A DNA stretch of 64,000 bases from Barthelona sp. PCE (Eukaryota). Under the pieces are notes generated by a model that was not told where the DNA came from, searched no databases, and was given only the letters and a program-made list of their open reading frames with translations. Of this stretch, positions 4,735 through 64,000 are shown one piece after another. Where the stretch lies: NCBI GenBank assembly GCA_040285745.1, contig JAUFOR010000005.1:1-64000 (forward strand). The letters are read 5' to 3'. The position numbers were made by a program, and so were the translations under genes. Each line of letters opens with the position of its first letter. The stretch's first letter is position 1.

Positions 4735-5562
4735 TCACCATTCAGTTCCTAAAAAGGTTGAACACCTATCGTCTCCGTAAAGCAACCTAAGAACGGTTAA
4801 TTCACCATCATTGATACATACCTTCACATTAACAAGCATGTTGCATGATTTTTTCTCATCAACCACATGGATGATTGCACGAGGACCGAAATTGCTAAAA
4901 ATATCAAAATGTGCAGAATGTTGCGTTGATGAAAACATCGGCATGCGGCAAATTGTATTTGTGTCTGACAGACCGAATGGCATATTAGGAATAATTGCAA
5001 ATCCATTAATGTTATGCAAAACAATAAATGGATAAATATAATCGCTATACACACCAAAAACGATTCCTTCAAAGCACAAAAATCTTCTGAAGTGTGAATT
5101 ACTAACCTCGATGCTACGTAGTATCTTACCGTCATCTAAGCCGCGAAAAGCAATCATAGAGGCTTGTAATGGTGAGTGAAAAATGTAGTACCCGTTCAAA
5201 CAAATAGCCTCCTTTGGAGAATTCATCCGGTTGAACCATACATCAATTTGGTAGTCAATTACTTCAGCATTTCTTTCAAATATACTCACTAAATATAATT
5301 TACCACTAATGCCAAAGAAACATGTTGGGTTTTCTGAGTTCACAACTTCAATAGCAATATCTATATTTGTTTGAAAAGGAAGGTACACCATGTCTACTTT
5401 ACCATCACTGCCCAGCATCGGTATCATATACTTTTTTTGTTGCTCTGAAACTAGAACAGTAATTCTTGAAAGCTTGCACCAAAGTCTCACATCTGGGTAC
5501 TCAATGCACTCGTTTTGTGATATGTTTGCAATGTAAGCGGTGTTTACTGAATGCTTATGCAT
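4735..5562 (-). CDS. Hypothetical beta-rich protein; 5' end lies in repeat module A, start uncertain
   Basis: Long ORF; its MHKHSVNT segment is the reverse strand of module A. Confidence 0.55.
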   Translation of the reverse strand: MHKHSVNTAYIANISQNECIEYPDVRLWCKLSRITVLVSEQQKKYMIPMLGSDGKVDMVYLPFQTNIDIAIEVVNSENPTCFFGISGKLYLVSIFERNAEVIDYQIDVWFNRMNSPKEAICLNGYYIFHSPLQASMIAFRGLDDGKILRSIEVSNSHFRRFLCFEGIVFGVYSDYIYPFIVLHNINGFAIIPNMPFGLSDTNTICRMPMFSSTQHSAHFDIFSNFGPRAIIHVVDEKKSCNMLVNVKVCINDGELTVLRLLYGDDRCSTFLGTEW

Positions 5563-5866
5563 GTGCAATGAAGCACGTCCCAAAAGGCGGCTGCTTCGAG
5601 CCGTACCCACAACGCAGCAAAAAAGTGCCCCACAACCAAGCCAATGCCCACACGTGCCAACAATCTTACGTGTCACGCGCCGAGAGCCCTGCGAAACACA
5701 TCAATAAATCTGTGAGGGGATAGAATTGCGAATGCAGTTCTGTTTCACATTCTCGCTTTCTGTTTACGCTTCACGTGTATTATATCATCTATATATGCCA
5801 CGTGCAAGCAGTAATATTAATATATACATGCTATCTCAATTTTCACCTACTTCATCACGGCTATAT
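5536..5866 (+). repeat. Module A copy 1: conserved non-coding 5' module of the ~700-aa family
   Basis: Near-identical to 40458-40789 (+) and 12583-12846 (-); CpG/CACGTG-rich; hairpin CGGCT-GCTTCG-AGCCG at 5588-5603. Confidence 0.92.
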
Positions 5867-7963
5867 ATGCCTAGGGTTCGAAAGTTCGAGGATGACCTTG
5901 TCATGCAGGCTTATCCAGAGGGGCAGATGATATTTGAGGGCCAGGGCGTAAGATTGCTTAAGTCAAGAGAAAACACTGATATTATCCTCATTGAAAGTGT
6001 TATTGAAGGTAGGGACTTTGTTGGGTATGTGGAGGATACGTGTGAGACTCTCAAATATACTTCTAAATTGAAAGCTGGAACGGGTTATATGTGTATCCAG
6101 CATAATTATGACGATATGGAGCTTGAAGTTTTATTTTTCAGAGATTTTAAGAGTGATGAACATGATGTCAGAAGAGTTTCCATTCCAATTGAGAAAGAAA
6201 ATTTTTTCTCATCCAGTGTGATTCCAGTGGATGAAAATCATCTCCTTTATGCAATTTCTGAGAGATGTGGCAATCACAGGAACGAATGTGTGACACGCTG
6301 CTATCTTTCAAACGTATTGACTGGAGAAAATAGAAAAATTGGAGAATATGAGTGCCTGCCATTGACAAATTCAAATTTTATTATTCTGATTCATGACAGT
6401 GTACTGCATCACTATAATTTTTCTAAAGATGACATGAAAGAAGAGCATGATCCGGATATTGAGCGAATGAATGACGTTGGTCTACACTCCACCATTTGCT
6501 GTTATAACGCTGATTGTGTTTGTTTTGTTTCGTATAGTAACGGTTTAATTGAAGAAATGATTGTTTTTGATTGTCAAAGGAACCATTTGAGCTTGACTGA
6601 AAGATTTCCACAGCTGAAAAAGTTGAACATTGATGGAATAACTCATTTCAGCTTATTTTCATTAACTCAAGATTGTTTTTTTGTGATTTTTTTTTACGGT
6701 GGTTCAAAATGTAGTGTAGTACATATTGAGAATGGTCATTTGAATGTGTCAAATGGTGAGATACCTGTATATAATTTATACTGTAGTGATTGGGATCATC
6801 TAGATTTGACTGAGGCTTTTAATCATGAAAGTTACGTTTTTTATGGCACATCAAGTATAGGGGTATATGGTCCTATCAAATATAGAAGCCTTTCTAGTGA
6901 GATGTTAAGTTTAAGTACTCTTCAACCAAAGAAAATATTTTTTGATGGAGTTGCAAAATTTTGTAACAATGATCTAAAACATCAATATTTCCTTAATTTT
7001 AAAGAGAACAGAATCGATATATTCAGGAATACAGATTGTATCCATAACGTTCAGATACTATTCAACAAATTCTCAGATCAACTAAATGCTTTTTGTGTAA
7101 TTTCACCAGAGCCAGGTGGAGAGCAAGGCCCAAAAGTTGTTAACATACACTGGAAATGTTCAAAACCGAAACCTATTGTGTCTGAATTACCTTATGGTGG
7201 GAGTCATTTTGTAAGTATTGTTCTAGGGTTACCATTCAGTGTTGATCATGGTAACAATAACAGCTGTCTTGTCTTTTTGGGGGATACAGTGATCTTAGAG
7301 CTTCCACAAAATTCATACGTCAATGATATCTTTGGTACTATCACTGATAACTATTTGTGCATTTTCTGTACCGATTCTGTACATTTCTTTCAATTATTGA
7401 TTGGTGAATATGGTGTAGAAGTTCAAAAACACTTCATTTTAGATCATAACGGTGAAATTTCGTATGTTCAGTGTTGTGTGTATCCTACGGCAACTGATCA
7501 CCAGCTCTTTGTTTTGAATGTATATGGGGAAGGTGTTGAAACTCAGCATTTGCATTGTTTAGATTGGACGACGGGAAATTTCTTAAAACCCATTCTGCTT
7601 TATAGGAGTGGTTCAAATTTTGACCAAGCGACACATTTCAGGAATTTCATAGGAGACTCATGCTTGTTAGTGAACCAAGGTATCGTTAAAGTATTTATTG
7701 TTGATGAAACTATAACATCACGTTTTTTCGCAAATAGCCACTTAAGTTTGAAAAATTTGAATTTTAACTTGAATCTACCCAAAAACATTGTACAGGCAGT
7801 GATATATGAGGCAGAGGCCAGGACAATGATTTTAAAAACATATAACATTGAGGAAGACCCGGAATCGATGAATCCCACAGTGGAAACGTTCCACCTTCCA
7901 TCGTTCCTGGCAGAGGCGTCCATCGTTGAGTACCACATACCTGAACTGAACAACACAAGGTGA
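5867..7963 (+). CDS. Lineage-specific ~700-aa family protein, copy 1 (possibly beta-propeller-like)
   Basis: Starts MPRVRKFEDD, ends ...FHLPSFLAEASIVEYH like paralogs; start chosen because it is the ATG shared in-frame by all four copies; no signal peptide or TM evident. Confidence 0.85.
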   Translation: MPRVRKFEDDLVMQAYPEGQMIFEGQGVRLLKSRENTDIILIESVIEGRDFVGYVEDTCETLKYTSKLKAGTGYMCIQHNYDDMELEVLFFRDFKSDEHDVRRVSIPIEKENFFSSSVIPVDENHLLYAISERCGNHRNECVTRCYLSNVLTGENRKIGEYECLPLTNSNFIILIHDSVLHHYNFSKDDMKEEHDPDIERMNDVGLHSTICCYNADCVCFVSYSNGLIEEMIVFDCQRNHLSLTERFPQLKKLNIDGITHFSLFSLTQDCFFVIFFYGGSKCSVVHIENGHLNVSNGEIPVYNLYCSDWDHLDLTEAFNHESYVFYGTSSIGVYGPIKYRSLSSEMLSLSTLQPKKIFFDGVAKFCNNDLKHQYFLNFKENRIDIFRNTDCIHNVQILFNKFSDQLNAFCVISPEPGGEQGPKVVNIHWKCSKPKPIVSELPYGGSHFVSIVLGLPFSVDHGNNNSCLVFLGDTVILELPQNSYVNDIFGTITDNYLCIFCTDSVHFFQLLIGEYGVEVQKHFILDHNGEISYVQCCVYPTATDHQLFVLNVYGEGVETQHLHCLDWTTGNFLKPILLYRSGSNFDQATHFRNFIGDSCLLVNQGIVKVFIVDETITSRFFANSHLSLKNLNFNLNLPKNIVQAVIYEAEARTMILKTYNIEEDPESMNPTVETFHLPSFLAEASIVEYHIPELNNTR

Positions 7964-8150
7964 GTGTATCAGTTTTCTTGCAAAATTACACATTTTTTCT
8001 TCTTTTCTCTTAAATTTTTTAAATTTTACAAATACTAGTAAAGCATTTGGACATCATACAGATTATACAAGCAGTATTACAGGAATGGAAAATCCTTTTT
8101 TGTTTTTGTATTTACATATTTCATCTCTTTAAGAATTTCAGCGTTTAAAG

Positions 8151-10184
8151 ATGGTAGATCTTCCATATCTTGATTTTTCATGCCGAGAAAACTCGTATTC
8201 AGATCTGGAAACTTTTTTGTATTCTCTTAGTGATGATGTGGACCCAGAAGGTGTTGATGCCGCTCTAGAAGTATTTATGGACTACAATTATGATGAGGAA
8301 ACTATTAGAGATTATATGTATGAGATGATTTCTATATATAATGGCGGAGCAGAAGATTTTGAGGATGAAGGAGGAGAGGTTGATCCTTCTATTATCGCTG
8401 AATTTGAAAGCATCGATTTTTATAACGAAAACCGTGAAGAGCTGCTTGAACAGCTTTCATATTTTATGGAAGATTTTTGTACCACTGAGTGCTTGGATGG
8501 CATATTCTCAGAATTTGTTTCAGGTGATTTGGATCCAGGAGTCTTATATGATTTATGTTGGAATCTTGTGGTTAATCCACAATTGGATGATGAAGCAAAT
8601 TTTGAAGAAGAAGCTTTTGATTATGGTGGGGAGGAAGAAGAACCAGAGTTTTACTGGGAAGCAAAGGACTATGTTGAGCCTGAAGGACCTCCTTTTACTA
8701 AAGGAGGACCATGTCCAGGAGAGTACTCTGAGGAAGGTGCTCACCCTGTTGATTTTATTCCAATGCGTCCAAACTTTGGTGAAGAAGAGCAAAGTGCTCA
8801 TCCGATAGATTATTCAGGTGCACCTAAGCATCCGAATTTTGAAGAGGAAATAGAATTGGAGAATCCAGCGATTATTCAATCAGAATCAGTTCCAGTTATG
8901 TACAGTGAGTATTCTCCCATGCAAATTCCATACCCAGAGGATCGTATAGAGATAGAACGTTATTCTGATAAAGATTTTTGGAATAACCGTTATGCGGAGG
9001 GAGTTTTTAAATTAACAGAGAGAGGAAATTATTTAAATCTTCCGTTATTCCCAGAAAACGAAGATTGGGGTTTTAACTTGAAACCGTATAATGGTTTAGA
9101 GTATTGGATAAGTACTATCGTTGTATTAACTCGTTTTTATCCAGCTGCTATTAAGTATCTTTTTAGTGAGCTAGATCATGCAAAAGGATATTTTAAGTTG
9201 CGTTTCTTTGAACCAAATGGAGCTGAGTTGTTTGTTGAAACCGATGATCAATTTCTTTTTTCAGGTAATTACAAAACTGAAGATGGAAGTGTTACTTCCG
9301 ATAGTAGTATCTCAACAGATGATCGTTTCTATATTTATGGTAATGGCGTGAAAGCACGTTCAATATGGTTGTCAGTCTTAGACAAAGCAATTGCTACGCT
9401 TCACGGTGATTATTGCAAAATGGAAGGACACAGCAAAGATATTGGCTCATTATTTCAGTTTTTTACTGGATGTAAGTCTATTAGTATTCCTTTAGATGTT
9501 GAGGATGAAGAGCTTCCAAATTTCTTCAAGTTTTTCAAAGAAGGAGCAATGATGGTTCTGGAGACTCATCAGGAAGAGAATGGAAGAAGTTATCATCGTG
9601 GATTTGGTGTTATGGGTATGACAGAAGAAATCCTGCACTTATACAACCCCAACATTAAAATGAAGGTGGAAGATCCAGCAGTTACCCAACAACAACGAGA
9701 ACATTTCAAAGAAACATTAGGTAATAGTTTATATACCGTGGTTACACATGATTTTGCGTGGAAACTGTTCAAAACTGCTCATGTTTGTCTTTTCCATGGA
9801 TCAAACAATGGGTGTAACGTTACTGCTTATGGTTATCATCATCCTAGAAGAGATCATCTTCTTCAGTTTAGTGAATTAAACATGTATGAGCTTATTTTCG
9901 ATAATGATGAACCTCAAATTTTCCAATTTGCTGCAATGCGTCACTCTGATTTGCTCACACCTCCCTATGAAAAATCCAGTGTTTATTTGTTCGAACTTCC
10001 CGAAAATGATGTGCACAAACCCGTCACGGGTGAAGATGGCATTGATGTTTCTAATTCAATCCGTATAATCGATCCAAAGAAGTTTAAGTATATTCTGTGT
10101 GGAGCTGGTTATGTTAATGAGGGTATTACAGTTAGTGATTGGTCTGTCTCTTCTGCACGTAAGTTTTCTCTTAAACTTATCTAA
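8151..10184 (+). CDS. Calpain-like protein with acidic N-terminus, probably catalytically inactive
   Basis: CysPc-like motifs: FVETDDQF, IWLSVLDKAIATLHGDY..MEG, FQFFTG, LYNP; the GDCW motif reads LEYW. Confidence 0.75.
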   Translation: MVDLPYLDFSCRENSYSDLETFLYSLSDDVDPEGVDAALEVFMDYNYDEETIRDYMYEMISIYNGGAEDFEDEGGEVDPSIIAEFESIDFYNENREELLEQLSYFMEDFCTTECLDGIFSEFVSGDLDPGVLYDLCWNLVVNPQLDDEANFEEEAFDYGGEEEEPEFYWEAKDYVEPEGPPFTKGGPCPGEYSEEGAHPVDFIPMRPNFGEEEQSAHPIDYSGAPKHPNFEEEIELENPAIIQSESVPVMYSEYSPMQIPYPEDRIEIERYSDKDFWNNRYAEGVFKLTERGNYLNLPLFPENEDWGFNLKPYNGLEYWISTIVVLTRFYPAAIKYLFSELDHAKGYFKLRFFEPNGAELFVETDDQFLFSGNYKTEDGSVTSDSSISTDDRFYIYGNGVKARSIWLSVLDKAIATLHGDYCKMEGHSKDIGSLFQFFTGCKSISIPLDVEDEELPNFFKFFKEGAMMVLETHQEENGRSYHRGFGVMGMTEEILHLYNPNIKMKVEDPAVTQQQREHFKETLGNSLYTVVTHDFAWKLFKTAHVCLFHGSNNGCNVTAYGYHHPRRDHLLQFSELNMYELIFDNDEPQIFQFAAMRHSDLLTPPYEKSSVYLFELPENDVHKPVTGEDGIDVSNSIRIIDPKKFKYILCGAGYVNEGITVSDWSVSSARKFSLKLI

Positions 10185-10252
10185 TTTAGTGATTTTGAAC
10201 AGAGAATGGAATAGAACGTATGCGAGTGTATTTCAATTTCTCACCATTTTAA

Positions 10253-10395
10253 GGTTTCCTATTTATTTTATTGTATTATTTAGTAATTGAAATAAAACTA
10301 TTTTTCAGATGTATGTACTTCCAAACTCTGAAGAAGGTACCCGTTTGCGGCACCATATCCGAACTTCAGTGATGAGACTAGGAAAAGAAAATCAT
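10253..10395 (+). repeat. Motif B copy 1 (direct repeat downstream of family copy 2)
   Basis: Blocks GGTTTCCTATTTATTTT, TTCAGATGTATG, GAAGAAGGTA, GCGGCA.CATATCCGAACTT, GATGAGACT and GAAAATCAT shared with 12900-13074. Confidence 0.85.
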
Positions 10396-10449
10396 CCTTA
10401 TAAACAATAGGAGAAAATGTGTATTCCTATATCTCCGTAGTCATGGAAA

Positions 10450-12582
10450 CTATTCATTATTCATCTGGGCATGATAGTTGGGCATATGGTACTCAACGAT
10501 GGACGCCTCGGCCAGGAACGATGGAAGGTGGAACGTTTCCACTGTGGGATTGATCGATTCCGGGTCTTCCTCAATATTGTAAGTTTTCAACAACATTGTT
10601 TTGGTCTCTCCTTCGTATGACATGTCTTGAATAACGTTGTTAGGTAGATTTGGATCGTGGTTTATCTTCATATCAGGAGAATATTGTAAATTGTTGTTTG
10701 TGAAAAAACGCGTTTTAATTGCACCATCTTCAACGTATGCTTTAATGATACCACCCCTCACGTATATGTATGAATCTCCCACGAAATTACGGAAATAGTT
10801 GCCTTCCTCCGTTCCATCATCATATGATTCCTTCCAAAGGAGAACAGGCTCTAAGAAGCTTCCTGTTGACCAATCTAAACAGTGTAAATGTTGCGTTTCT
10901 ATTTCATCATCATCTTCATATACAACAAACAGCTGATGATCAGGTGTTTCAGCCAATGGACGAGGGTTGAAGTAAACATCTACTGCAAATCTATGTTCAA
11001 AAAAAATGTGCTTTTGAACCTCCACGTCATACCCGTTGACACTGAGCTGAAAAAAATGGATTGCTTCATCACAAACAATGCACGCTGAATTATCAAAATG
11101 TGAATCATGAACATCTAGAACATAAATATTCGGTGGAAGCTCTAAAATCATCTTTTCTCCCAAATACACCAAGCCTGTATCATCTTCACGATAGTCAACA
11201 TTTAAGGGCAACCCTAGAATAAAACCATAGTTTTCAGTACCACAATGAGGCAAAATAGTTGTGATGGGTTCGGGTTCTGAGTCGTTCCAACGTAATTTGA
11301 CATATGTAGTACCTGTTTCACTAATTACATCTGCCAATACAAAAAAATCACCTGCTTCATTTGGTTGAACTGATAAGATATGGCACCACATACGTGAAAG
11401 CAGTTTCCTACGCCCACGCAGCACAATAAGCTTCCTTTCTTTAAAAAAAAAGTAACATCTTATCAAAGAATCATCATACACTTCCGCTATTCCATCAAAA
11501 AATACTTCTGCTGGTTCAAGGCTTGCCAAACGCACAACCTCACTATCAACTGCTCTGAATTTGATTGGGCCATAACGTTCTGTTATTTTATCAACGCCAT
11601 AAAAAACACAATCTTCATCACGAAAGGAATTATCGTTCAAATCTATATGCTTCAAGTCATCGCAGAGTACATTATCAAGATTCATTTCACCCTCTAACAT
11701 CTTCAATTCATCGTTTTCGATATGAATCACCGTGAAACTTGAATAAATGAATACCATTGACAAAACATCTTGAGTGAGCGTCAACAATGCAAATTTTGAG
11801 TCTCTATCAATATTCAATCCTTTAAGCTGCGGAAACCTTTCTGTCAAGTTAACTTGGTTCCTCTGACAGTCAAATATTATTAGTTCATCAATTTCTTTAT
11901 CACGAAACCTGACTGAGCAAATGCAATACGAGTTCAAACACCACCTGATGTATTCTAAATGAACACCATGTAACTGCTCAATATTAGGTTCATGTGCCTC
12001 GTCCATATCATCTGCAGAAAAATTGTAATGCCATATGGTATCATTTTGGCATTTCTTTAACAAAATGTAGTTTGGAGTTCTCACCGAAATTGAGTAATAT
12101 TCTCCAAGACATCTATAATCATAGGTTATAACATTTAATATGTAGGATTGTATCACTCTTCTATTATCAACGGTTTCCCTAATGGCGATTAATAGGTGGT
12201 TTTCATCCATCGGAATTATTCTGCTTGATAGATTTTTGATCATCGGAAACGGAAATGGTATTCTCCTGCTTGTATGTTCATCGCTCATGATATCGTTAAA
12301 CAATAAAATATCAAGATGAGTTAACATCTTACTGTCATCACGAAGCTGTTCGATGATCATGTACAATTCTCCAGCTCTCAGCTTAGATGTGTATTGAAGA
12401 GGCTTACGCGTATCCTCCACATACCCAACAAAGTCCTTGTCTTCAATAGCGCTTTCAATGAGGCTGATATCGGTGATATCTCTTGATTTAAGCAATACTA
12501 CGCCCTCTCCCTCAAATATTAGTTGCCCCTCAGGATAAGCCTGCATGACAAGGTCATCCTCGAATTTACGAACCCTAGGCAT
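10450..12582 (-). CDS. Lineage-specific ~700-aa family protein, copy 2
   Basis: Same termini as copy 1; homologous but diverged core. Confidence 0.85.
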   Translation of the reverse strand: MPRVRKFEDDLVMQAYPEGQLIFEGEGVVLLKSRDITDISLIESAIEDKDFVGYVEDTRKPLQYTSKLRAGELYMIIEQLRDDSKMLTHLDILLFNDIMSDEHTSRRIPFPFPMIKNLSSRIIPMDENHLLIAIRETVDNRRVIQSYILNVITYDYRCLGEYYSISVRTPNYILLKKCQNDTIWHYNFSADDMDEAHEPNIEQLHGVHLEYIRWCLNSYCICSVRFRDKEIDELIIFDCQRNQVNLTERFPQLKGLNIDRDSKFALLTLTQDVLSMVFIYSSFTVIHIENDELKMLEGEMNLDNVLCDDLKHIDLNDNSFRDEDCVFYGVDKITERYGPIKFRAVDSEVVRLASLEPAEVFFDGIAEVYDDSLIRCYFFFKERKLIVLRGRRKLLSRMWCHILSVQPNEAGDFFVLADVISETGTTYVKLRWNDSEPEPITTILPHCGTENYGFILGLPLNVDYREDDTGLVYLGEKMILELPPNIYVLDVHDSHFDNSACIVCDEAIHFFQLSVNGYDVEVQKHIFFEHRFAVDVYFNPRPLAETPDHQLFVVYEDDDEIETQHLHCLDWSTGSFLEPVLLWKESYDDGTEEGNYFRNFVGDSYIYVRGGIIKAYVEDGAIKTRFFTNNNLQYSPDMKINHDPNLPNNVIQDMSYEGETKTMLLKTYNIEEDPESINPTVETFHLPSFLAEASIVEYHMPNYHAQMNNE

Positions 12583-12846
12583 ATATAGCCGTGATGAAGT
12601 AGGTGAATATTGAGATAGCATGTATATATTAATATTAGTGCTTGCACGTAGCATATATAGATGATATAATACATGTGAAGCGTAAACAGAAAGCGAGAAT
12701 GTGAAACAGAACTGCATTCGCAATTCTATCCCCTCACAGATTTATTGATGTGTTTCGCAGGGCTCTCGGCGCGTGACACGTAAGATTGTTGGCACGTGTG
12801 GGCATTGGCTTGGTTGTGGGGCACTTTTTTGCTGCGTTGTGGTACG
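12583..12846 (-). repeat. Module A copy 2 (5'-truncated at the hairpin 3' arm)
   Basis: By eye, 4 substitutions and 1 indel versus 5602-5866. Confidence 0.92.
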
Positions 12847-12899
12847 ATTTCAGATATATTTGAGTGTTTTGCAGATGAACCCAAATTTTATTCTTTTAT

Positions 12900-13074
12900 G
12901 GTTTCCTATTTATTTTTTGTGTACTATCTTTACTGAAATACTATAAACTTTCAGATGTATGGACTTGAAGAAGGTAGCCCCGTGCGGCAACATATCCGAA
13001 CTTAGATCTCTGTAAAGAATCTGTTTACTCTCCCTTACCCGTTAACATGGATGAGACTCTGGATGAAAATCATA
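12900..13074 (+). repeat. Motif B copy 2 (upstream of family copy 2)
   Basis: Diverged direct repeat of 10253-10395. Confidence 0.85.
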
Positions 13075-13238
13075 TAAAGAATAAAACAACTTTTTTTAAT
13101 CAGGCAAAGCTTTTGCGCATCGATTTCATAAAAAAATTTGTTGAATTCTGAGTTACTGTAGCATTAAGCACAGTAATGCATATTCTGAAACTGAATAAAG
13201 TTGGAACATTTTGTTTTTCAAATTTTTACCATCATCAT

Positions 13239-13847: not shown

Positions 13848-14042
13848 AATTTTGTATTAGTAAATCACAAACTATGTTCAAGTTAGGGCAGGTTTTTTTT
13901 CCACGCTTATTTGTTAATTTTTTGTGTTTGGACACATAATTACGCAGATTGATACATCTAAAATAAACAATGAGAGGATAACCATACATCTCAAGAAATT
14001 TGTTTTTCAGTTTTTACTCTTTTTATCTCAAATTTCTTATAT

Positions 14043-14258: not shown

Positions 14259-14519
14259 TCGTTTTTGTGTGATTCTTCCCTTTTGTTCAAGGTATCTGCA
14301 CTATTTTGACCCTAGGACAATATAACCATTAGTAAACATTAATTAAAAACGTGTAAATTGGAGTATCACAAAAAGAAATTACTCGAAAATAAAAAAAATA
14401 ATGGTGTTTACAATGTAGCTAGAATTGTCAAAAATTCCGGGAACACACGCGTTTGTCAACCACAAATCATTTGTCGGAACATGACACACAAAGAAAATAT
14501 CAAAATAAAAACATCTAAT

Positions 14520-19199: not shown

Positions 19200-19205
19200 A
19201 GGTTT

Positions 19206-35190: not shown

Positions 35191-36012
35191 ATGGTTTTTT
35201 CTGATATCAAGGTTTACATTCGGGGAGCAGGTGAAATGGCATCTGCAATTGCCGTGAGACTTGCAAAAACTGGATTAAAAGTTCTTCTAAGTGAGGTTCA
35301 ATATCCACTTGCAGTTAGACGTGCAGTTTCCTTCTGTACTGCGGTTTACACCAGCGAACATTCCATAGAGGGTATAAAGGGAGTCTTATGTGGTGATTTA
35401 GATGAATTTAATACCATTTTCATTGCTAAGAAAACAGTTGGTGTATTAGTTGATCCTGATTTTTCTCAAGGGCGCATATTCGACCCCCACTTTGTGATTG
35501 ACGCGACATTGAGCAAGACAAACAGTGTTGGAACCACAATTGATATGGCTCCATGTGTAATTGCACTTGGACCAGGATATTGTGCCGGAAAGGATTGTAA
35601 TTTTGTGGTGGAGACAAACAGAGGACACAAACTAGGTTTGTTAATAACTGAAGGTTTTTCTGCTCCTAATACTGGCATCCCTGGTGTCATAAATGGTTAT
35701 TCTTCTGAGCGGGTTTTGAGAGCACCAGTTGCTGGATGCGTCACTATTGTGAAGGGTATTGGTGAAATTGTTGAAGTAGATGAAGTAGTAATGAAAGTAG
35801 ATGATTATGAAGTTAAATCAGTAATAGCAGGAGTAGTTCGTGGTGCTATTCGCAGCTCAACAGTTGTCAAAAAGAATGAAAAAATTGGTGACGTGGATCC
35901 TAGAGCTGATGCAGTCCATTTTTTTCATTTAATATCGGATAAAGCAAGAAATATTAGTGGAAGTGTTTTAGAAATTATATTTGGTCAAGTACATGATATG
36001 CCTACCCATTAA
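35191..36012 (+). CDS. yqeB: Selenium-dependent molybdenum hydroxylase system protein, YqeB/EF2563 family
   Basis: IRGAGEMASAIAVRL, PLAVRRAVSF, IALGPG..AG.D, VETNRGH.LG, PNTGIPG, ERVLRAP, KIGDVDPR, ISDKAR.I.G.VLE. Confidence 0.9.
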   Translation: MVFSDIKVYIRGAGEMASAIAVRLAKTGLKVLLSEVQYPLAVRRAVSFCTAVYTSEHSIEGIKGVLCGDLDEFNTIFIAKKTVGVLVDPDFSQGRIFDPHFVIDATLSKTNSVGTTIDMAPCVIALGPGYCAGKDCNFVVETNRGHKLGLLITEGFSAPNTGIPGVINGYSSERVLRAPVAGCVTIVKGIGEIVEVDEVVMKVDDYEVKSVIAGVVRGAIRSSTVVKKNEKIGDVDPRADAVHFFHLISDKARNISGSVLEIIFGQVHDMPTH

Positions 36013-39125: not shown

Positions 39126-40370
39126 TCATTCTAATACAACGCTGGGATCACGCTGTACTAACGCTATGGACTCAACAAACGTTGATTCCACCCTGCTGCA
39201 GTGCATATTCATAATTGCCATCAAATCATTCTCGTCCAGTTTCCCAGCATTCTGCAAATCATTGATGAGAGGCATTGTGTCATTGGCATACTGCAAAAAC
39301 GTATGAAATATTTCTACATCTTTGCTAAATTCGAAAAAAAAATTCATAAAACAAAACAATGCTTCATATACAGTACCTGATGAGTGATTCTTTGTGTTTT
39401 TAACCATGAACCTGAATATTTGTGTTTTGTAAGCAGATATAGTAGGGCATGTGAACATGTTGGATAAGAGCCAAAATAACTCCCTCAATTCCTGCTCTTT
39501 AAAATCTCTGCTCAACATAAGTAAAGTGAGATCTAGTAATTCGTCAGATGCTTCAATACATGCTACGTTGCCCAAAGTGCGGCACAACGGTGCAAAATAA
39601 ACATAGGAATGTACTACTGAAATGTACGGCAAGAGATCGCTTTTAATCCACTCCTTAATGCTCGTACTATAATTGGTGCCAAAGCATCCAGATCCCACCA
39701 CGTCTAAAAGATAGCTGATACACCATAGGGACGAGGAGGATAACGAAGGTTGGCGCTTCCAGCATTGAAGTATAAAATGGGCAATGGGGTAATAGACATC
39801 GTAGCACAAATTCTTCTTTTTCATTCTAAAAAAGTTTGAAAGAAACCAGATTACTGTTGGGAGATTTTCCAAATCATCTACAAAACACTCAAATATATTA
39901 TTCAATATTTCTACAAAATATCTCATGAACGTCTCCATTTGTTCTTTTTGTACTATTTCATCGCCCATCAAATTCGATAGCAGCCACAGGGCTTGGACAA
40001 ATACCTCCCTCGAAGAATCATCTGGAACTCTTCTATTGTGCACCCAAATCAACACAGCTTTCTCTACAACAGCACTTATTAGCTTATCTTTTCCAGCAGA
40101 TATGTCAGTAAAAGTGGTACCGCTGGCAAGATTGGTCAGAACCCACAGAAGATTTTCTTCGTGCTCACCAATAACTACGTCTGAGTCTAGCCAGCTGACC
40201 AATCGCTCAAGAATCTGGGTGTCAGTGACAACACGACTCTCATCTTGCATCATGAACCTTCGTAATGCTACCAAAAGAGTGGTATCAGGGTGGTTCAAGT
40301 CCAGCACATACTCAAAAGGCGTTTGGACATCGATATAGTCGTCCTCACGTTCGCGCTTTACGGTTGGCAT
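39126..40370 (-). CDS. Divergent importin-alpha-like ARM-repeat protein
   Basis: Repeated W..TN/SN ARM motifs: WVLTNLASGT, QALWLLSNLMGD, WFLSNF, WCISYL, RTLGNV, WLLSN; probable start MPTVKRE. Confidence 0.8.
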   Translation of the reverse strand: MPTVKREREDDYIDVQTPFEYVLDLNHPDTTLLVALRRFMMQDESRVVTDTQILERLVSWLDSDVVIGEHEENLLWVLTNLASGTTFTDISAGKDKLISAVVEKAVLIWVHNRRVPDDSSREVFVQALWLLSNLMGDEIVQKEQMETFMRYFVEILNNIFECFVDDLENLPTVIWFLSNFFRMKKKNLCYDVYYPIAHFILQCWKRQPSLSSSSLWCISYLLDVVGSGCFGTNYSTSIKEWIKSDLLPYISVVHSYVYFAPLCRTLGNVACIEASDELLDLTLLMLSRDFKEQELRELFWLLSNMFTCPTISAYKTQIFRFMVKNTKNHSSGTVYEALFCFMNFFFEFSKDVEIFHTFLQYANDTMPLINDLQNAGKLDENDLMAIMNMHCSRVESTFVESIALVQRDPSVVLE

Positions 40371-40457
40371 CGTGTGAATCAGGAAAATCTGATGAGAATT
40401 AGGCTGAAAATTTGGAAACAGAAGTTTTAACGCGTTCCAGCGGCCAGCACCGCATAC

Positions 40458-40789
40458 AGTGGTGTTTACTGAATGTTTATGCATGTACAATGAAGCACGT
40501 CCCAAAAGGCGGCTGCTGCGAGCCGTACCCACAACGCAGCAAAAAAGTGCCCCACAATCAAAACAATGCCCTCACGCGTCCAAAATCTTACGTTTCACGC
40601 GCTACAAGTCCCTGCGAACCACATCAATAAATCTGTGAGGGGATAGAAATGCGAATGCTGTTCTGTTTCACATTCTCGCTTTCTGTTTACGCTTCACGTG
40701 TATTATATCATCTATATATGCTACGTGCAAGCACTAATATTAATATATACATGCTATCTCAATATTCACCTACTTCATCACGGCTATAT
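40458..40789 (+). repeat. Module A copy 3
   Basis: Aligns end to end with 5536-5866 with the same 5' boundary; hairpin stem kept, loop changed. Confidence 0.92.
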
Positions 40790-41235
40790 ATGCCTAGGGT
40801 TCGAAAGTTCGAGGATGACCTTGTCATGCAGGCTTATCCAGAGGGGCAGATGATATTTGAGGGCCAGGGCGTAAGATTGCTTAAGTCAAGAGAAAACATC
40901 AGCCTCATTGAAAGCGCCATTGCAAGGACTTTGCTGGGTATTTAGAGGATACGGGTGAGCCTCTTCAATACACATCTAAGCTGAGAGCTGGAGAATCTTA
41001 CATGATAATTGACGAGCTTTTTGAAGATCGTATTATAACCCATCTTGATATTTTATTGTTTAGTGATATCATGAGCGATGAACATACAAGCAGGAGAATA
41101 CCCTTTCCGTTTCCGATGATCAAAAGTCTATCAAGCAGAATAATTCCGATGGATGAAAACCACCTACTATTCACCATTAATGAAACCGTTAATAACAGGC
41201 GATATTTCCATTGCTACAAATTAAATGTTATAACC
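40790..41235 (+). pseudogene. Truncated, frameshifted copy 3 of the ~700-aa family
   Basis: MPRVRKFEDD start; 4-nt deletion near 40922 shifts the frame; homology stops at ...AATGTTATAACC (41235). Confidence 0.88.
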
Positions 41236-41236
41236 G

Positions 41237-41258
41237 CAACAACAACAACAAAAAAAAA
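41237..41258 (+). repeat. (CAA)n plus A-run at the truncation point of copy 3
   Basis: (CAA)4-C-A9. Confidence 0.85.
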
Positions 41259-41468
41259 CGAACTTCATTTCCATCTCTAACTGATGTTATCACATTTTCT
41301 AACATCGTTACTTCGATTTCTTTACGTATGAGGATCCTTTAACAAATTCTTTCTTAGAAGCTATTGGTAGTCATCACCCTTGCAAAAGACCAGAAAATTT
41401 TCCATCAATACTGAGAACCATAATAAATAGCCAATCTTTTGATGTCCAACTCACATCATTCAACTGTA

Positions 41469-44400
41469 CTACTGAAACTGTTTCATGCGTTCCTGCACCT
41501 GGTCGAGTGTAACTTGCTGTATTTGTGCCACGTTGCAATAACCATGATGCCCGCACGCTGGTGAAAGACAAGCAAAACAAAAATCACGAGCGCATGTAGA
41601 ACATTTCATGCTCTTGCATGCGCCTCCATGTTCGATAGGTGTCAGACAATTTGGGCAAATGCGCACAGAAGGCACATTTTCAATTTGGTTAAACTCAATT
41701 GTTATGAGTGGTGCATTTTGTAAGCGGTTGTTAAGTTCGTCGATATCATCTTTGTTCCACTGCGATAGACTTTGTGTTATAAGGAGTTTGAACTCATTCG
41801 GCAGAATACCTCGGATGGCAAGCGGAAGCCCTTCACGTACGCGCATAACACTGTTAGGCAATCTAAGTGTATGATCACAGAGGGAGACTGATGGTAGCAT
41901 GTTGTCAGCAGGCTGCAGAATTACAGTGAACGGGTTTAATTCAGATGAGCTGTTGAGCCAGTATACGAACTGAAGTAAATCAAGTGAGTTGAATCCCTGC
42001 ATCAGCTTACTAATAACATCACGTATATCGTTGGGCACCTCATCATTATAGTCAAGGGTGGAAAGGACCTGTTCAGCAGTAAAACGAGGAGGGCCACACA
42101 TAATTGACTTAATCTCAACGAAAGTTAGTGTGACTCCCAGTTGCGAAGTAAGTTCGTGCGAGTTGAATGTTGCGTTTATCTTGTTCGAAAGATCAACCCA
42201 AGGACATGAAACCATGTCACGTGCGAGCTGCATGAATTCTTCGATGTTGTCAGCTGTTACGGGCCGTTCCTCACCTCCGAAACAGTTGAAGTTCAGGTCA
42301 TCGTGCTTCAGCATGTTGAGAATGTACGCTGATTCGGTTGGGAATACCCTGTCAAAGACTGTTGCATCGGAAAGCTTGTCGAAGTCACCACTGATTGCGT
42401 TAAGCACGAACTGTCCCACCTGCACGTCGTCAACGGGTATCTGAAACACGAAACAACAATACAAAAAACCACAAATAGCATCTATTAGATCATCTGATGA
42501 TGATATTTTGATCTGAGGCAAAGAACGATACTCAAAAACATGGTCCACAAAATGAGCAAGAGATAGTTGTTCCATACCATGTAACTTAATAGTTGCGCCG
42601 AAATATTCAGCACTGTTCATGAATAGGTCTACATCGCCAAATACCCTCAAGAAAAAATCGTCAAAGGTTACCCCAGTTTGTACAAACTTCATTATATTTC
42701 CATCTCGCTCGTTATCGCGCAATAGCGCATGTTTAGCAACGACAAATTGGTTGATCTGGAGATTAATCAATGACAGGCGGTCATGTGTTATCGTATTAGT
42801 TCGCCATTCATGACAGCTCAGCTCATAGATAGATGGTCTTAAACGAGCATCGTGGGCTTGACAGCGTTGGATGATTTCAGAGTGTGCACAGTCATTATGC
42901 AAGATTAAATTTGAAATATCACTTCTGTCTTTAGCGAAAATATACCCAACGGTTTTTCCTAGTGAAAATATATCGCTCAAAAACGTGTGAGGCTGACCTT
43001 CTGTAACCTCCCTTGCCATATAACCGATAGTACCAACCATAGTACCACCCATAGTATGATTATTTGAGATACTGACACCAAAGTCACACATTTTGAGTTT
43101 GGGATTGGATCCATCCTCATTACAGAAGACAAGGACGTTCTGGGGCTTGAGGTCTCGCAGGATGATACCAGTGGCATGCATCATGAACACAGCCATCACT
43201 AACTGGTGAGCTAAAGTATTTCTAATTGAAAGATGGAGATCAGGGAAAGATCTAAGATATTGCTCAAGATCATATTGTGCATGCTCAAGCTCGATACAAA
43301 CGAACTTTAGTTTAACAGAACCCCGCTTAACCTCAGGAACGAATACCACATTTTTGAGTGCAACAGCAAATGGGTGAAGCTTGGTTAACACACGTAGCTC
43401 TCTTCGCAATGCCTTAAGATTAAAGTTCAGACTTTCTTCTGATAATCTTTTTGATACACATATACATTTGATAAACCGATCATTTTTCCTCTTAATTCCA
43501 TTGTTCAAACCGAAATCTTCCAGATCACCATTCAAATAACTATTAAAACTAATGATTTTTGGTAAGGTGGGAAACCTGATGGAAGATAGATGAAGCTCCT
43601 CTAAAGTTGCTGTCAGATCGACAGCAAGAGAGAACTCACAAATCAAATCATCAATCAATTTCAGATTGTTTTCAGATGTGGATAACAAATCTTGCTTTGC
43701 TCTCTCAAAATGTACGGTTTCACATGCGACGATGTCCACCCGATGTCGCTCTATTTGATCTCTTAACGAATAAAGCAAATCAAAATCAAACGGAGCAGGT
43801 TCTTCATCCTTTCCCAATGCTTCTCTGAATTCAAAAATTTGCTCAGAAATCTCGACCACATGTTTAGAACTTTTAATCAACGATGCGTTTTTATCCATTA
43901 ACAATGTAATAGAATTATGTATTCTATTTAACTCAATATCTATGCAATTATTAAAAACAATAAAATAAGCATCTAATTCCTCAAGTTCCTCCAACTTAGC
44001 AACATAAAGGTCCTCATTAAGTTCTTCTGCAATTGGAAATTCTTTAATTATGTCAGCAAAATAATTTGCATAAGTTGTACTCAAAGTATTTCTCAGATCA
44101 TAATCTTTAATTATTATATCTATACCATTAACAAATTCAAAAGTCATATCTAGATCATCAAGATGTTCTTCCATAGTTTCAACTTTAGGATTTGATGATA
44201 ACCATTTAAAAAAAGATTTTTGAGGTACATTCAGTTGTTTAATTGAGGTTGCACACTCATCAATTCGTTCTGTTAATGCAACAAACTCCGCATTACCCGT
44301 ATCAGGCACAATCTTGCTTAATGTATCTAGTATTATTTGTATCTTATTATTCAATTTTGATATCTTATTATTCATTTTTGATATCTTCAAATCAGTTTGA

Positions 44401-44627
44401 GATTTATATACTTGGTGTTCAATTTTTTCATTTTCAAATTCTTTTTTCAAATCTTCTTTCTCTTTAGATAAATTTAGTATGTCTAGTGCATTTTCATCAG
44501 AAAATTCAACAATTACTTCATATAGTTCAGATTTGACTTTTCCAATTGCAACACTTGTTTGTGCAAATTTTTTGTCAACCATAGTTTCATCATCATTACT
44601 GAAATTTGAAGAACCATAATTATTCAT
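41469..44627 (-). CDS. Coiled-coil + protein kinase + HECT-like + RBR RING2/IBR-like fusion protein
   Basis: Kinase LRDLKPQN, DFG, GTIGYMARE, DIFSLG; HECT-like GGEERPVTADNIEEF, LLQFV, LPSVSLCDHTLRLP; CPNC..PIEHGGACKSMKC..C..DFCFAC. Confidence 0.8.
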   Translation of the reverse strand: MNNYGSSNFSNDDETMVDKKFAQTSVAIGKVKSELYEVIVEFSDENALDILNLSKEKEDLKKEFENEKIEHQVYKSQTDLKISKMNNKISKLNNKIQIILDTLSKIVPDTGNAEFVALTERIDECATSIKQLNVPQKSFFKWLSSNPKVETMEEHLDDLDMTFEFVNGIDIIIKDYDLRNTLSTTYANYFADIIKEFPIAEELNEDLYVAKLEELEELDAYFIVFNNCIDIELNRIHNSITLLMDKNASLIKSSKHVVEISEQIFEFREALGKDEEPAPFDFDLLYSLRDQIERHRVDIVACETVHFERAKQDLLSTSENNLKLIDDLICEFSLAVDLTATLEELHLSSIRFPTLPKIISFNSYLNGDLEDFGLNNGIKRKNDRFIKCICVSKRLSEESLNFNLKALRRELRVLTKLHPFAVALKNVVFVPEVKRGSVKLKFVCIELEHAQYDLEQYLRSFPDLHLSIRNTLAHQLVMAVFMMHATGIILRDLKPQNVLVFCNEDGSNPKLKMCDFGVSISNNHTMGGTMVGTIGYMAREVTEGQPHTFLSDIFSLGKTVGYIFAKDRSDISNLILHNDCAHSEIIQRCQAHDARLRPSIYELSCHEWRTNTITHDRLSLINLQINQFVVAKHALLRDNERDGNIMKFVQTGVTFDDFFLRVFGDVDLFMNSAEYFGATIKLHGMEQLSLAHFVDHVFEYRSLPQIKISSSDDLIDAICGFLYCCFVFQIPVDDVQVGQFVLNAISGDFDKLSDATVFDRVFPTESAYILNMLKHDDLNFNCFGGEERPVTADNIEEFMQLARDMVSCPWVDLSNKINATFNSHELTSQLGVTLTFVEIKSIMCGPPRFTAEQVLSTLDYNDEVPNDIRDVISKLMQGFNSLDLLQFVYWLNSSSELNPFTVILQPADNMLPSVSLCDHTLRLPNSVMRVREGLPLAIRGILPNEFKLLITQSLSQWNKDDIDELNNRLQNAPLITIEFNQIENVPSVRICPNCLTPIEHGGACKSMKCSTCARDFCFACLSPACGHHGYCNVAQIQQVTLDQVQERMKQFQ

Positions 44628-44754
44628 CTGTTTAGGTTTCAATAAGGTATGAGTCCTACTGCTTCTTCGTCCCACCGTTTTTCGCATAATGAAAGAGAGA
44701 AAGATAATGAAAACGTGTTATTCGTTGTATATCCTCTTTAAGTAGGCAGTTATC

Positions 44755-56307: not shown

Positions 56308-56460
56308 AGCAATAATGTAAAAATATTCATTGTTTTCTTTTATTCCCTTTTTGAGGGTATAATTGTGGATAAATTCATTATACGCATGCCTAGAATACTA
56401 TTGTAAAAGATCAAAGCTTGTTTCAGTTTTTTTTCCTTTTCAGAAGAACTTACTCTTCAT

Positions 56461-57117: not shown

Positions 57118-57331
57118 AAATAATTGATGGGATTGAATATTTTGATTTCAGCTTCACAAAACCATACAATTAATTCTTCTTCTTGAAAAAATCAAAAAGG
57201 AATAAATGGATTTTGAACTTTTCTTTTTTAGTTGTTTTTAATTTTTTTTAAAAAGAGACAATGGAACAGCAACACTTGGGGGAGGTCGTCATCCTTGGAA
57301 GTGCACGACTCAGAAGTACATTCACACTATC

Positions 57332-60300: not shown

Positions 60301-61449
60301 TGATAACCGCCACACTTCTTAGAAACAAATTTTTCAAACACTTCCTTAGTTGCTTCATCAACACGGATAGTTTTGATGAAGGTATGTTATCTCAACCAAA
60401 TTTTCGCTGTCAATAATCGAAACATTTCGTAAAACTGAAAGCACAACTCCTCTATCACTAGCAGGGCAAGTTTTATCGGAATTCACCTTCTTCCACACCC
60501 CTAGTTCTTCTAAGAAACCAAATGGAGCTCTAGGAGGTTGGGGAATTTTCTCTAAATATTCATAATAAACACCTAAATCAAGTAAAACAGGTTTCAGCTC
60601 ACTTAACAACATAAAATTCCCTGATTCTCTGACGATTTCCAAAAAAAGTTCTTCATCGTATTTGAGAACCATGTAAATATTGTCACCATCAACTAAAACA
60701 CTTCCGTCACGAATACTATCCACAAGCACTGTCGGATAACGAGAATAAACTTCTTTTTTCAAAGCTACCTCCAGATCAGAAAAGTTATGATTCTCGGAGT
60801 GTCCTATAATCTCAACAACACTATCAACAAATGTGTTAGATTTTTTGATTAAACGTTGCACAACCGCCTTATGTTCGCGGTAAAAATAACGCATGCTCAG
60901 TCCGTTATTGAACTTATGTAACATATATGCTTCAAGAACAGGCAGTGTTTCAGTACGTTTCAACAAAGCGGAAAGCAACTTTATATCAATTTTCTCAACT
61001 TCAATGTCTTGCAGGACTTCAATTGAACAGTTTCCGATGATTTTTGCCTTGTCTTCGAACGAGAATGAACCAGTTTCATCCGTGTAGATGTCATCACATA
61101 TGGAACCGAAGTTGCACATGCTGCGACCCAGTTTAGTGATGAATCGTTGTCTCACAGCAGGATTCAACTGCTTTAGCTTGTCCAGGACGTTATCCTGAGC
61201 CATAAAAGCCTTGAAAACTAAAGGGAAATCAAAGAATCTCAATACAAGACGCTTATCCTCGCTATTCAGTAATTCGAACATGCGCTCGTAGTCCTTGCGC
61301 ATTCTCAAATGATGCAAATATGCCTTTTTCTCTTTAATCGATGAGAATTCTGATAAAACTGCATCAAAGACTGGCAACTTGCACAACTCAGCCAAAAGCT
61401 GGTTACGGCACAGAGTGCTGTCGTTGATTAAACGTAAAAAACTATCCAT
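57332..61449 (-). CDS. Large hypothetical helical protein split into three frames (61449-60358, ~60386-60153, ~60199-57332); frameshifted gene, pseudogene or assembly error
   Basis: Three overlapping same-strand ORFs, each joined by a +1 shift, with no intergenic space. Confidence 0.6.
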
Positions 61450-61565
61450 AAACTGTTGAAAAGAAATGAAAAAAGTAAATCATATGTGCTGAATAATAGA
61501 GAAGATCATGTGCACATATCAAAATTTGTATGTGCTTATATGTATGTAATGTTGGATGATTGGTA

Positions 61566-61604
61566 ACAGAAATCTAAGATCGGATATGTTGCGCATGCGG
61601 GCTA
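61566..61604 (-). repeat. Motif B core upstream of family copy 4
   Basis: ACAGAAATCTAAGATCGGATATGTTGCGCATGCGGGCTA resembles the reverse complement of ~12976-13013. Confidence 0.8.
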
Positions 61605-61655
61605 AACAATGCTATCTCTTTTTACACTTGTTTCATCAAGGCAAGCTACTTTTAT

Positions 61656-63818
61656 ATGCCTCGAATCCGTAAATTCGAGGATGACCTTATCATTGGGGCC
61701 TTTCCCGAGGGGCAAATTATTTTTGAAGGTCAGGGTGTTAGAATGGTCAAAACTAGAGAAGACACTCATTTACACAATCTCATTGATGCTGTAGATGGGG
61801 AAGAATTTTGTGGATATGTTGAAGAAACGTGTGAAACACTTCAGTATTATTACAAGCGAAAAGCTGGAGCAGGATATATGATCGTTGAACAGCATTTTAG
61901 CGAAGATAATCGATTAACTGAACTTGAAATCATGTATTTCAACGAAATCAACAGTGATGAACACACCAAAAGAAAGATTCGTTTCCCTGAGGATTTGGAT
62001 AATTTACTTAACTATGTATCAAGCGATTTTATTCCATTAGATGACAACCACATTTTTTTTGCTATTACAGAGGTTGATCAAGACCATAATATAGAAACGA
62101 CGCATTGTTACATTCTCAATATACTAACAGAACAGTACCGGTGTCTTGGAGAGTACAACCATTACTCCATCAGCACTTGTTCCCTTCAATATCTATTGAT
62201 GAGCAATTATGAAAATGGTTTTTCAATATTTCACTACAATTTCTGCGCAGATGATATGGATGAGGCTCATGAGCCGGATATCGTACAGCTAGAAGGTGTC
62301 CATAATCAAAACTGTATAGGATGTTACAATGCTGATTGTGTTTGTTTTTCTGTTTATGGCGAGAGATTAGAAGAATTGATCATTTTTGATCGTCAACGAA
62401 ATCGTGTTGACTTACTAGAAAGATTTCCACAGTTACTTGAATTGAAAATATCCTACTGTTCTTATTTTGCCTTGTTCACATTGACACAAGATGTATTTTC
62501 TGCACTTTTCTATGATGGTTCAATTTGTACTGTTGTTCATATTGAAAACGGGGAGCTTAAGTCGACAACTGGTGATATAAGCAGTTCCATTGCTCATTGT
62601 GATGATTTAAAACAAATTGACTTGGCGAATTCTTTTCATAATGAACAATGCCAGTTTTTAGGAACTTGTAATTCAACAGGTGTTTTTGGTCCTATAAGGT
62701 TTAGGAAAGTCAATAACGAGGTGATTCGCTTGCAAAATTTTTGGCCTCACAGCGTGATGTATGATGGTATAGTATATTTTGATAATTATAGGAGAAAGAA
62801 AAGATATTACTTTAATTTCAAAGAAAAAATAATTGTCATACATAAAAGTGTTATGACCAACGATAGTGTTATGTTCGAAAGGAATTACAGAGAACTATCG
62901 AAGCATCCGGTTGAGGAAGAGCATTTCTTTGTGATTGCAAAGTGTAATGCAAGACAAGGTGCTTCAGAAATAGTTAAAATACACTGGGAAGGTTCAGAAT
63001 CAAAACCAATAATAACTTCTTTTGAAAATGATGGCTTGAATTATATTGGCTTAGTTCTTGGGTTACCATTTTTTATTGAGTACAATGAAAATGTTTGTCA
63101 AGGTTATCTTGATAATACAAAAGTTTTGGAGCTTCCTCCAAATGAGTACATAAATAATTGCAAGCCTTCAGTCACTGGAGATTCTGTGTGTGTTAGTTGT
63201 ACTAATTCAACACATTTTTTGCAATTGTTGATCAATAATAATGATGTTGAGGTTCAAAAGCACATCACTTTTCATCATGGTGATGATGTTTCGAGTGTAG
63301 TCTATTGTCATCATCCATTAACAGATACAGCTGACCACCAGCTCTTTGTTACATATAAATACAATAATGATGGTGAGGAACAGTATTTGCATTGTTTAGA
63401 TTGGTCAACAGGAAATTTTTTGGAACCCGTTTTGATATATAAATATTCAAATGTTGGTGAAATGCATGAAGAATTGATGGAAGGTAACTGTTTCTTTAAT
63501 TTCATAGGTGATTCGTACATTCAAGTGGATCAAGGTATTAATAAGGTATCCATTGTTAATGGTGTTATTGAAATGCGATTTTTTTCAAATACTATTTTAC
63601 CAAATATTGGCAACGATATTCGCAGCTTAAATCTACCTAACAACGTTGTTCAGGAAGTTATTTACGAAGAAGAAACCAAGACAATGGTGTTGAAAACGTA
63701 TAACGTTGAGGAAGATCCAGAATCAACTAATCCCACTGTGGAAAGGTTCCACCTTCCATCATTCCTGGCAGAGGCGTCCATCGTTGAGTACCACATGCCC
63801 AATTATCATGAGCATTAA
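61656..63818 (+). CDS. Lineage-specific ~700-aa family protein, copy 4
   Basis: MPRIRKFEDD...FHLPSFLAEASIVEYHMPNYH; 3' flank (63820-63865) matches that of copy 2. Confidence 0.88.
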   Translation: MPRIRKFEDDLIIGAFPEGQIIFEGQGVRMVKTREDTHLHNLIDAVDGEEFCGYVEETCETLQYYYKRKAGAGYMIVEQHFSEDNRLTELEIMYFNEINSDEHTKRKIRFPEDLDNLLNYVSSDFIPLDDNHIFFAITEVDQDHNIETTHCYILNILTEQYRCLGEYNHYSISTCSLQYLLMSNYENGFSIFHYNFCADDMDEAHEPDIVQLEGVHNQNCIGCYNADCVCFSVYGERLEELIIFDRQRNRVDLLERFPQLLELKISYCSYFALFTLTQDVFSALFYDGSICTVVHIENGELKSTTGDISSSIAHCDDLKQIDLANSFHNEQCQFLGTCNSTGVFGPIRFRKVNNEVIRLQNFWPHSVMYDGIVYFDNYRRKKRYYFNFKEKIIVIHKSVMTNDSVMFERNYRELSKHPVEEEHFFVIAKCNARQGASEIVKIHWEGSESKPIITSFENDGLNYIGLVLGLPFFIEYNENVCQGYLDNTKVLELPPNEYINNCKPSVTGDSVCVSCTNSTHFLQLLINNNDVEVQKHITFHHGDDVSSVVYCHHPLTDTADHQLFVTYKYNNDGEEQYLHCLDWSTGNFLEPVLIYKYSNVGEMHEELMEGNCFFNFIGDSYIQVDQGINKVSIVNGVIEMRFFSNTILPNIGNDIRSLNLPNNVVQEVIYEEETKTMVLKTYNVEEDPESTNPTVERFHLPSFLAEASIVEYHMPNYHEH

Positions 63819-64000
63819 CATAATGAATAGTTTTAATGATTATAGAGATATAGGAATACACATTTAATCATAAAGTGCTATGTTAGTAATCCTTAAATTT
63901 ATTTAGTTAGAGTTCAGCGCTTCTTTGAACTTCAGCGCTGAAGGGCAAACGAGTTTGACTCGGATTCATCTCCATTTGCATGAAATTTGGTGCATATAAA

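Follow-up and report, generated by a model that had tools for sequence, protein, structure and literature searches.

Diversification of gene families by copying segments from one member into another is best known from the surface antigens of parasites and from the repeats of fungal NOD-like receptors (NLRs). The VSG genes of trypanosomes, vlsE of Borrelia and ves1 of Babesia all undergo segmental gene conversion among paralogs, which yields mosaic variants. Large lineage-specific expansions are also met among substrate receptors, such as the F-box and MATH-BTB proteins of nematodes or the F-box-Kelch proteins of plants. In the HNWD genes of the fungus Podospora anserina, selected residues lie on the d-a loop and the b-c turn, at the top interaction platform of a propeller (PMC1805685). 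The family that concerns us here was met in the protist Barthelona sp. PCE, in the first 64,000 nucleotides of contig JAUFOR010000005.1 (assembly GCA_040285745.1); 'the window' refers to this whole stretch. A preliminary description had noticed four related loci there, copies 1 to 4, and proposed that constant DNA ends frame a hypervariable core that is swapped or mobilized as a cassette. Self-BLAST and repeat finding recovered the four loci at the coordinates of Table 1. What we observe is that non-allelic copies exchange short tracts, and do so over the full length of the gene; gene conversion is very probably the source of this exchange.

The window shows but a small part of the family. A profile search retained 43 proteins among 4409 candidates, three from the window and 40 hypothetical proteins of PCE. 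When 1.84 billion representatives were searched with HMMER, without an index, 19 matched, 13 of them with new identifiers. The nine of these that were looked up all belong to Barthelona sp. PCE, and the other four are fragments. This makes at least 56 near-full-length genes (42, plus seven cluster members, plus seven), with 10 fragments and one fusion, spread over seven contigs. The PCE genome, as published, has 10.2 Mb on eight contigs, encodes 5064 proteins and contains 4.46% repeats (PMC11316075); the share of the family is about 1.3% of the gene models (67/5064). It appears to be Barthelona-specific and dispersed: every named relative comes from PCE, and none of the 166 sequences that matched a pattern in viral contigs, nor of the 169 that did so in metagenome contigs, was a relative. 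Longer fused forms did not show up among 4386 candidates of 1345–3840 amino acids, which is weak evidence. Copies 1, 2 and 4 match no Pfam family (E 0.01), and no sequence relative was found in the PDB. Nor did we find the family described in the Barthelona literature, the genome paper (PMC11316075) and its readable supplements included, the large main supplement and one scanned file being unreadable.

All the family-wide tests that follow used protein sequences only, from a single assembly. A main clade gathers 33 of the 51 aligned members, copy 2 among them, with a median identity of 73%; a second clade has 10, including copy 4, with a median identity of 86%. The remaining members, including copy 1, are singletons, 36–50% identical to copy 2. 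The pair on which the preliminary description was built opposes an old paralog, copy 1, to a member of the main clade, copy 2. Only Y186, C215, N217, C220, F250 and P687 (copy 2 numbering) are invariant in 49 of 49 aligned members; they include a C-x-N-x-x-C motif.

Exchange between copies is visible by several measures. The pairwise homoplasy index (PHI) was computed on gap-free columns, with 28 of the 33 main-clade members (five short ones were dropped) and nine of the 10 members of the second clade (P0013 was dropped), and compared with clonal simulations on the fitted tree, made without autocorrelated rates or indels. Its z value was −20.7 in the main clade, against −1.96 to +1.45 in eight simulations, and −8.8 in the second clade, against −2.23 to +1.2, again in eight. 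In the main clade, sites that lie 1–2 residues apart show 0.33 of the expected incompatibility, and this ratio climbs to about 1 once the distance exceeds 40 residues. When trees are made from segments of the gene, 14 of 88 well-supported splits recur from one to another, while the figure in four clonal simulations is 259 of 290. Of 378 pairs, 22 have significant identical runs (p 0.001), and 21 of the 28 sequences take part in them; each of three simulations gave none in 378. Copy 2 is a case in point. It has identical runs of 35–109 residues in common with seven different paralogs, mostly on other contigs: P0062 (residues 74–131), P0024 (140–175), P0009 (167–238 and 307–415), P0008 and P0025 (240–276), P0033 (412–451) and P0029 (665–701). 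Loop alleles of several residues recur in different, non-nested subsets of copies, and any segment comes in 20–31 distinct alleles among 33 copies. The core is thus not swapped as a unit, as had been supposed, but recombined within subfamilies in tracts of tens of codons.

How, then, did the ends come to look constant? The identity that drew attention to them is real. Upstream DNA of copy 1 (5602–5866) and copy 2 (12583–12846) is identical at 260 of 265 positions, with four substitutions and one indel, and the 3′ boxes (7847–7935 and 10487–10575) agree at 87 positions out of 89. As a measure akin to synonymous divergence (dS), we took the proportions of synonymous (pS) and non-synonymous (pN) differences per aligned codon segment, in pairwise alignments between window copies. 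Between copies 1 and 2, pS varies strongly along the gene: 0.35 in the first 70 aligned codons, 0.21 in 37 codons near the 3′ end, and 0.66 in the core. The ends must be younger than the core, because pS is low in the former and saturated in the latter. That the core is diverged stands (the two proteins are 41% identical), but hypervariable is not the right word, as the core of copy 1 represents an old subfamily, 44–49% identical to most other members. Compared with its best match in the main clade, copy 1 is 93% identical over residues 1–30, 85% over residues 31–70 and 44% in the core. P0038 displays the same pattern (93%, 76%, core 46%), and separate trees of ends and core are incongruent for both proteins. 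With the uneven dS, this bears out the view that recombination homogenizes the ends, and copy 1 looks like an old paralog, the ends of which have been overwritten. In P0006 a second-clade core is followed by a C-terminal stretch of the main-clade type; P0006 and P0038 are chimeras between subfamilies. Purifying selection explains another part of the conservation, because the termini are the best-kept parts of the protein even in far-diverged members (P0045: 80%, core 35%, 69%).

The shared ends have no fixed boundaries. At the four window loci their extent is specific to each pair: shared upstream DNA starts at 5536 for copies 1 and 3, and at about 5602 for copies 1 and 2. Of the upstream module, copy 4 shares only about 40 nucleotides, and it differs from copy 1 in the first 70 codons by a saturated pS of 0.76. 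The module of copy 3 aligns to that of copy 1 with 311 identities, 18 mismatches and five gap positions. Among copies 1 to 3 the odd one out switches in blocks: copy 3 over 5636–5736, copy 1 over 5799–5841, copy 2 over 5881–5971, then mostly copy 1. Copy 3 is thus copy-1-like over 5881–5971 and copy-2-like downstream. These endpoints, together with the mosaic core, speak against the image of constant ends framing a mobile core. It had its merits: the 5′ module is near-identical in copies 1–3, copies are dispersed without tandem pairs within the window, a direct repeat of about 120 nucleotides lies on both sides of copy 2, and the 5′ end of the family is joined to another gene in P0043. Yet fixed ends acting as cassette boundaries, or as those of a mobile element carrying whole variable cores, are very unlikely in view of endpoints that vary by pair, a copy 4 devoid of the module and a core that is itself mosaic at the scale of tens of codons. 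Besides, the five largest repeats listed per region include neither terminal inverted repeats nor target-site duplications at copy boundaries (short ones could be missed), copy 2 alone has direct repeats on its flanks, and no transposase, recombinase or reverse transcriptase family was found in the 28 of 34 open reading frames (ORFs) of the window that were scanned.

A more prosaic worry is that the identical ends and tracts were produced by short reads placed on the wrong paralog. Correction with Nanopolish and Illumina reads, as reported for PCE (PMC11316075), can indeed remove the few differences left in tracts that are nearly identical. However, the assembly was made from 66x Nanopore long reads (PMC11316075), the three upstream modules differ from one another, and the recombination signal is built on alleles common to different subsets of copies; it also stands to reason that polishing cannot make identical regions that are 75% identical. 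An artefact of this kind is extremely unlikely.

The mechanism that we propose is homology-dependent ectopic gene conversion. It would act over the whole gene between copies that are about 70–90% alike. Between old subfamilies it would be confined to the first 70 codons or so and to the 3′ box, because it needs local similarity, and it is there that protein constraint would have preserved similarity at the DNA level. Conversion tracts at these constrained termini would run into the flanks, giving the impression of constant ends. DMC1 is reported from another Barthelona strain, PAP020, distinct from PCE (bioRxiv 10.1101/2025.05.23.655837).

Where does the variation fall in the protein? AlphaFold, supplied with 49 sequences, gave a nearly all-beta model (predicted local distance difference test, pLDDT, 85.1; predicted template-modelling score, pTM, 0.74), in agreement with the beta-rich character first suspected. 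A prediction from three sequences was poor (pLDDT 45) and was left out of fold searches. The family protein is confidently predicted to be a tandem double beta-propeller of four-stranded blades. Foldseek ranks highest, though with low template-modelling (TM) scores, chains from the SSU processome, from IFT-A and from axonemal complexes. With VIA-align, residues 355–684 match a single propeller (Z 12.1, root-mean-square deviation 5.3, 291 residues aligned), as do residues 49–352 (Z 9.9, 4.8, 245 aligned). Several alignments to single propellers span residues 5–28 to 661–688, ranges that give only the first and last residues. Because they join both ends of the protein, we infer that strands from the N-terminus take part in closing the second propeller; the two conserved ends would then lie together. 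A viral fold library returned generic matches only (TMq 0.07–0.23), and the ESM Atlas none at 0.9 or above.

We delimited 12 blades manually, using the model's secondary structure (DSSP) and no coordinates, residues 300–358 being left unassigned. The 22 BC and DA loops have a mean entropy of 1.31 bits, against 0.46 bits for the 22 AB and CD loops (Mann–Whitney p 4e-7), and sites with a pairwise difference above 0.6 number 59 of 188 on the BC/DA face and six of 147 on the AB/CD face. On the model, therefore, variation is concentrated on the BC/DA loops, while the AB/CD loops and both termini are conserved. The absence of an evident signal peptide or transmembrane segment was confirmed by hydropathy, the top 19-residue Kyte–Doolittle window reaching 1.07–1.58 and the N-terminus being charged, with no dedicated signal-peptide predictor run.

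What could such a family be for? In our view it is somewhat probable that it constitutes a functionally diversified, variable repertoire of putative intracellular binders, an idea already put forward and which proteins that are beta-rich and without targeting signals make plausible. Old loop alleles would be reshuffled into new combinations on putative ligand-binding faces, and the conserved termini, apparently closing the second propeller jointly, would maintain a scaffold or docking surface shared by all. Such a repertoire would most plausibly recognize foreign proteins (from viruses, endosymbionts or prey-derived molecules), or its members might serve as substrate receptors. A bolder form of this idea is tentative, and we would not bet on it: an antibody-like cytosolic library of about 60 stand-alone double-propeller genes, with loops under diversifying selection, ongoing ectopic conversion, and termini by which all members dock on the same effector or ubiquitin ligase. 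One might also think of a mostly silent archive that feeds, by conversion, a single expressed locus or a small number of them, as in antigenic variation, for segmental mosaicism is what VSG and vlsE systems display, and the copies have an upstream module in common. However, this same module is found on three window copies, most copies are intact and full-length, no signal peptide or transmembrane segment is evident, and the host is free-living, all of which makes such an archive highly improbable.

Several observations weigh against a binder repertoire. In the sole pair of main-clade genes that could be compared as DNA (copies 2 and 3, 147 codons, copy 3 being a pseudogene), pN is 0.215, lower than a pS of 0.309, over 37 codons of variable loops; pN of the framework is 0.053 on 110 codons. 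The mean difference on the top face, 0.40, equals a rough neutral expectation of 0.41 (at 22% nucleotide difference), and the asymmetry between faces is also seen between old subfamilies (0.67 vs 0.37), so that relaxed constraint fits as well. No effector domain was seen in the family proteins. Blade labels were set by hand after the entropy track had been seen, one BC loop (669–680) is conserved, and all family-wide tests rest on the proteins of one assembly. Ordinary concerted and birth-and-death evolution might then suffice, with conversion a mere by-product of many similar copies, loops under relaxed constraint, and copies near-redundant in a dosage or structural role. It would accommodate a pN lower than pS in the single pair compared as DNA, a top-face difference at the neutral level, and the numerous fragments and deletion variants. 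It would not readily account for variation that falls so strongly on one face while the loops of the other are conserved, for multi-residue loop alleles recurring in non-nested sets of copies, or for about 1.3% of genes being kept in a 10.2-Mb genome with 4.46% repeats (PMC11316075). We deem it rather unlikely, and retain a repertoire of intracellular binders as the reading to work with.

Table 1. Members of the family in the window, with the repeats and modules that accompany them
Feature	Position	Strand	Remark
Upstream module of copy 1	5536..5866	+	probable promoter region
Copy 1, 698 aa	5867..7963	+	old divergent paralog; first ~70 codons and 3′ box main-clade-like
3′ coding box of copy 1	7847..7935	+	covers last blade and C-terminal helix
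Element E, downstream of copy 2	10247..10366	−	about 75% like 12894–13003
Copy 2, 710 aa	10450..12582	−	main-clade member; predicted double beta-propeller
Upstream module of copy 2	12583..12846	−	
Element E, upstream of copy 2	12894..13003	−	direct-repeat partner of 10247–10366
Upstream module of copy 3	40458..40789	+	
Copy 3	40790..41235	+	frameshifted, 3′-truncated main-clade fragment, ends after 446 nt
Partial element E	61558..61592	+	about 65 nt upstream of copy 4 start
Copy 4, 720 aa	61656..63818	+	belongs to second, 10-member recombining subfamily

The surroundings of the copies (Table 1) deserve a few comments. A 17-mer from element E has four matches where 0.22 would be expected; it could represent either a promoter element of greater age or what is left of the 3′ part of another gene. 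The upstream neighbour is divergently oriented at all four copies. Two divergent ORFs, 4735–5562 (−) and 39126–40484 (−), have their first eight codons identical, because both begin within the shared module, a possible bidirectional promoter. The first of these ORFs is unrelated to the family (hhalign probability 0.5%) and to P0043. In the latter, the first 75 or so family residues are fused with an unrelated region and with a kinase that shows 44% identity to that of the kinase-HECT-IBR gene adjoining copy 3 (41469–44687, −), an architecture unusual in itself. The module does not appear to encode a structured RNA, having no Rfam match and a folding z of −0.64. An in-frame upstream ATG opens an extension of 45 codons in copies 1–3; it is probably non-coding, because five of five differences fall at codon position 2, each changing a residue. 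The start context of copy 1 is locally duplicated within the module (5770–5799 and 5842–5871). A CAA/A-rich run at the break of copy 3 suggested retroposition, which we judge unlikely, because copy 3 carries 330 nucleotides of upstream DNA. P0052 is copy 3 read with a predicted intron (window 40790–41277), and the locus tag just below it belongs to a full-length protein, P0014, absent beside copy 3 in the window: either the numbering is not positional, or there is a second identical fragment. Elsewhere in the window, a direct duplication of 151 nucleotides (732–882 and 972–1122, 99% identical) lies just downstream of a tRNA gene (560–633), and the ORF at 35191–36012 (+), 273 residues without a Pfam match, presumably resembles bacterial YqeB-type molybdenum-hydroxylase accessory proteins; lateral transfer is possible.

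PCE is reported to have what is apparently the smallest genome of a free-living eukaryote (PMC11316075), and yet about 1.3% of its gene models make up a single family, unannotated and reshuffled between contigs. This would mean frequent ectopic recombination in a lineage without observed sex. If the binder reading is true, a stand-alone intracellular repertoire becomes a concrete candidate for the recognition of viruses or bacteria in free-living protists. In the bolder, antibody-like form of that reading, a conversion-driven innate immune repertoire would exist in a unicellular organism that is not a parasite.

It remains to place the family among the systems that it brings to mind. Like VSG, vlsE and ves1, it makes mosaics by segmental conversion among many paralogs. 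These are, however, surface antigens of parasites, with expression sites, whereas Barthelona is a free-living protist and its proteins have no evident targeting signals, judged by hydropathy only; the fixed conserved flanks around a VSG or vlsE cassette are not seen at the four Barthelona loci. With the expanded substrate receptors it has in common a large species-specific membership, conserved ends and a variable, here putative, binding domain, but no F-box, BTB or SOCS domain was matched in Pfam at E 0.01 (divergent motifs could be missed). The predicted fold relates it to double propellers (IFT-A and SSU processome chains) in its tandem arrangement, and, for each half, to single propellers such as prolyl oligopeptidase, Nup133, Nup120 and Vps11; identity is mostly 5–13%, no match stands clear of the others, and the modelled fold names no function. 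The HNWD/NWD receptors (het-d, het-e; PMC1805685) come closest. They too offer a beta-propeller recognition surface, exchange sequence among dispersed loci, and vary on the d-a loop and b-c turn, Barthelona strands being hand-assigned on a model. The differences are many. HNWD proteins have NACHT and effector domains, while the Barthelona protein is apparently a stand-alone double propeller: Pfam gave no NACHT match in copies 1, 2 and 4, and the model is nearly all beta. HNWD genes exchange near-identical tandem WD40 units as repeats, whereas Barthelona blades are dissimilar (no tandem repeat inside the copies among 15 matches listed, and no internal DNA self-match) and exchange takes place between equivalent positions of paralogs. 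There are 10 HNWD members against about 60 here, and positive selection is established for HNWD, to be set against the loop pN of 0.215 and pS of 0.309 in Barthelona. In operation, the family thus resembles both HNWD diversification and antigen mosaics, while failing defining features of each; what is unusual is its scale, its spread among contigs, proteins with no evident targeting signals, and a free-living host with a minimal genome.

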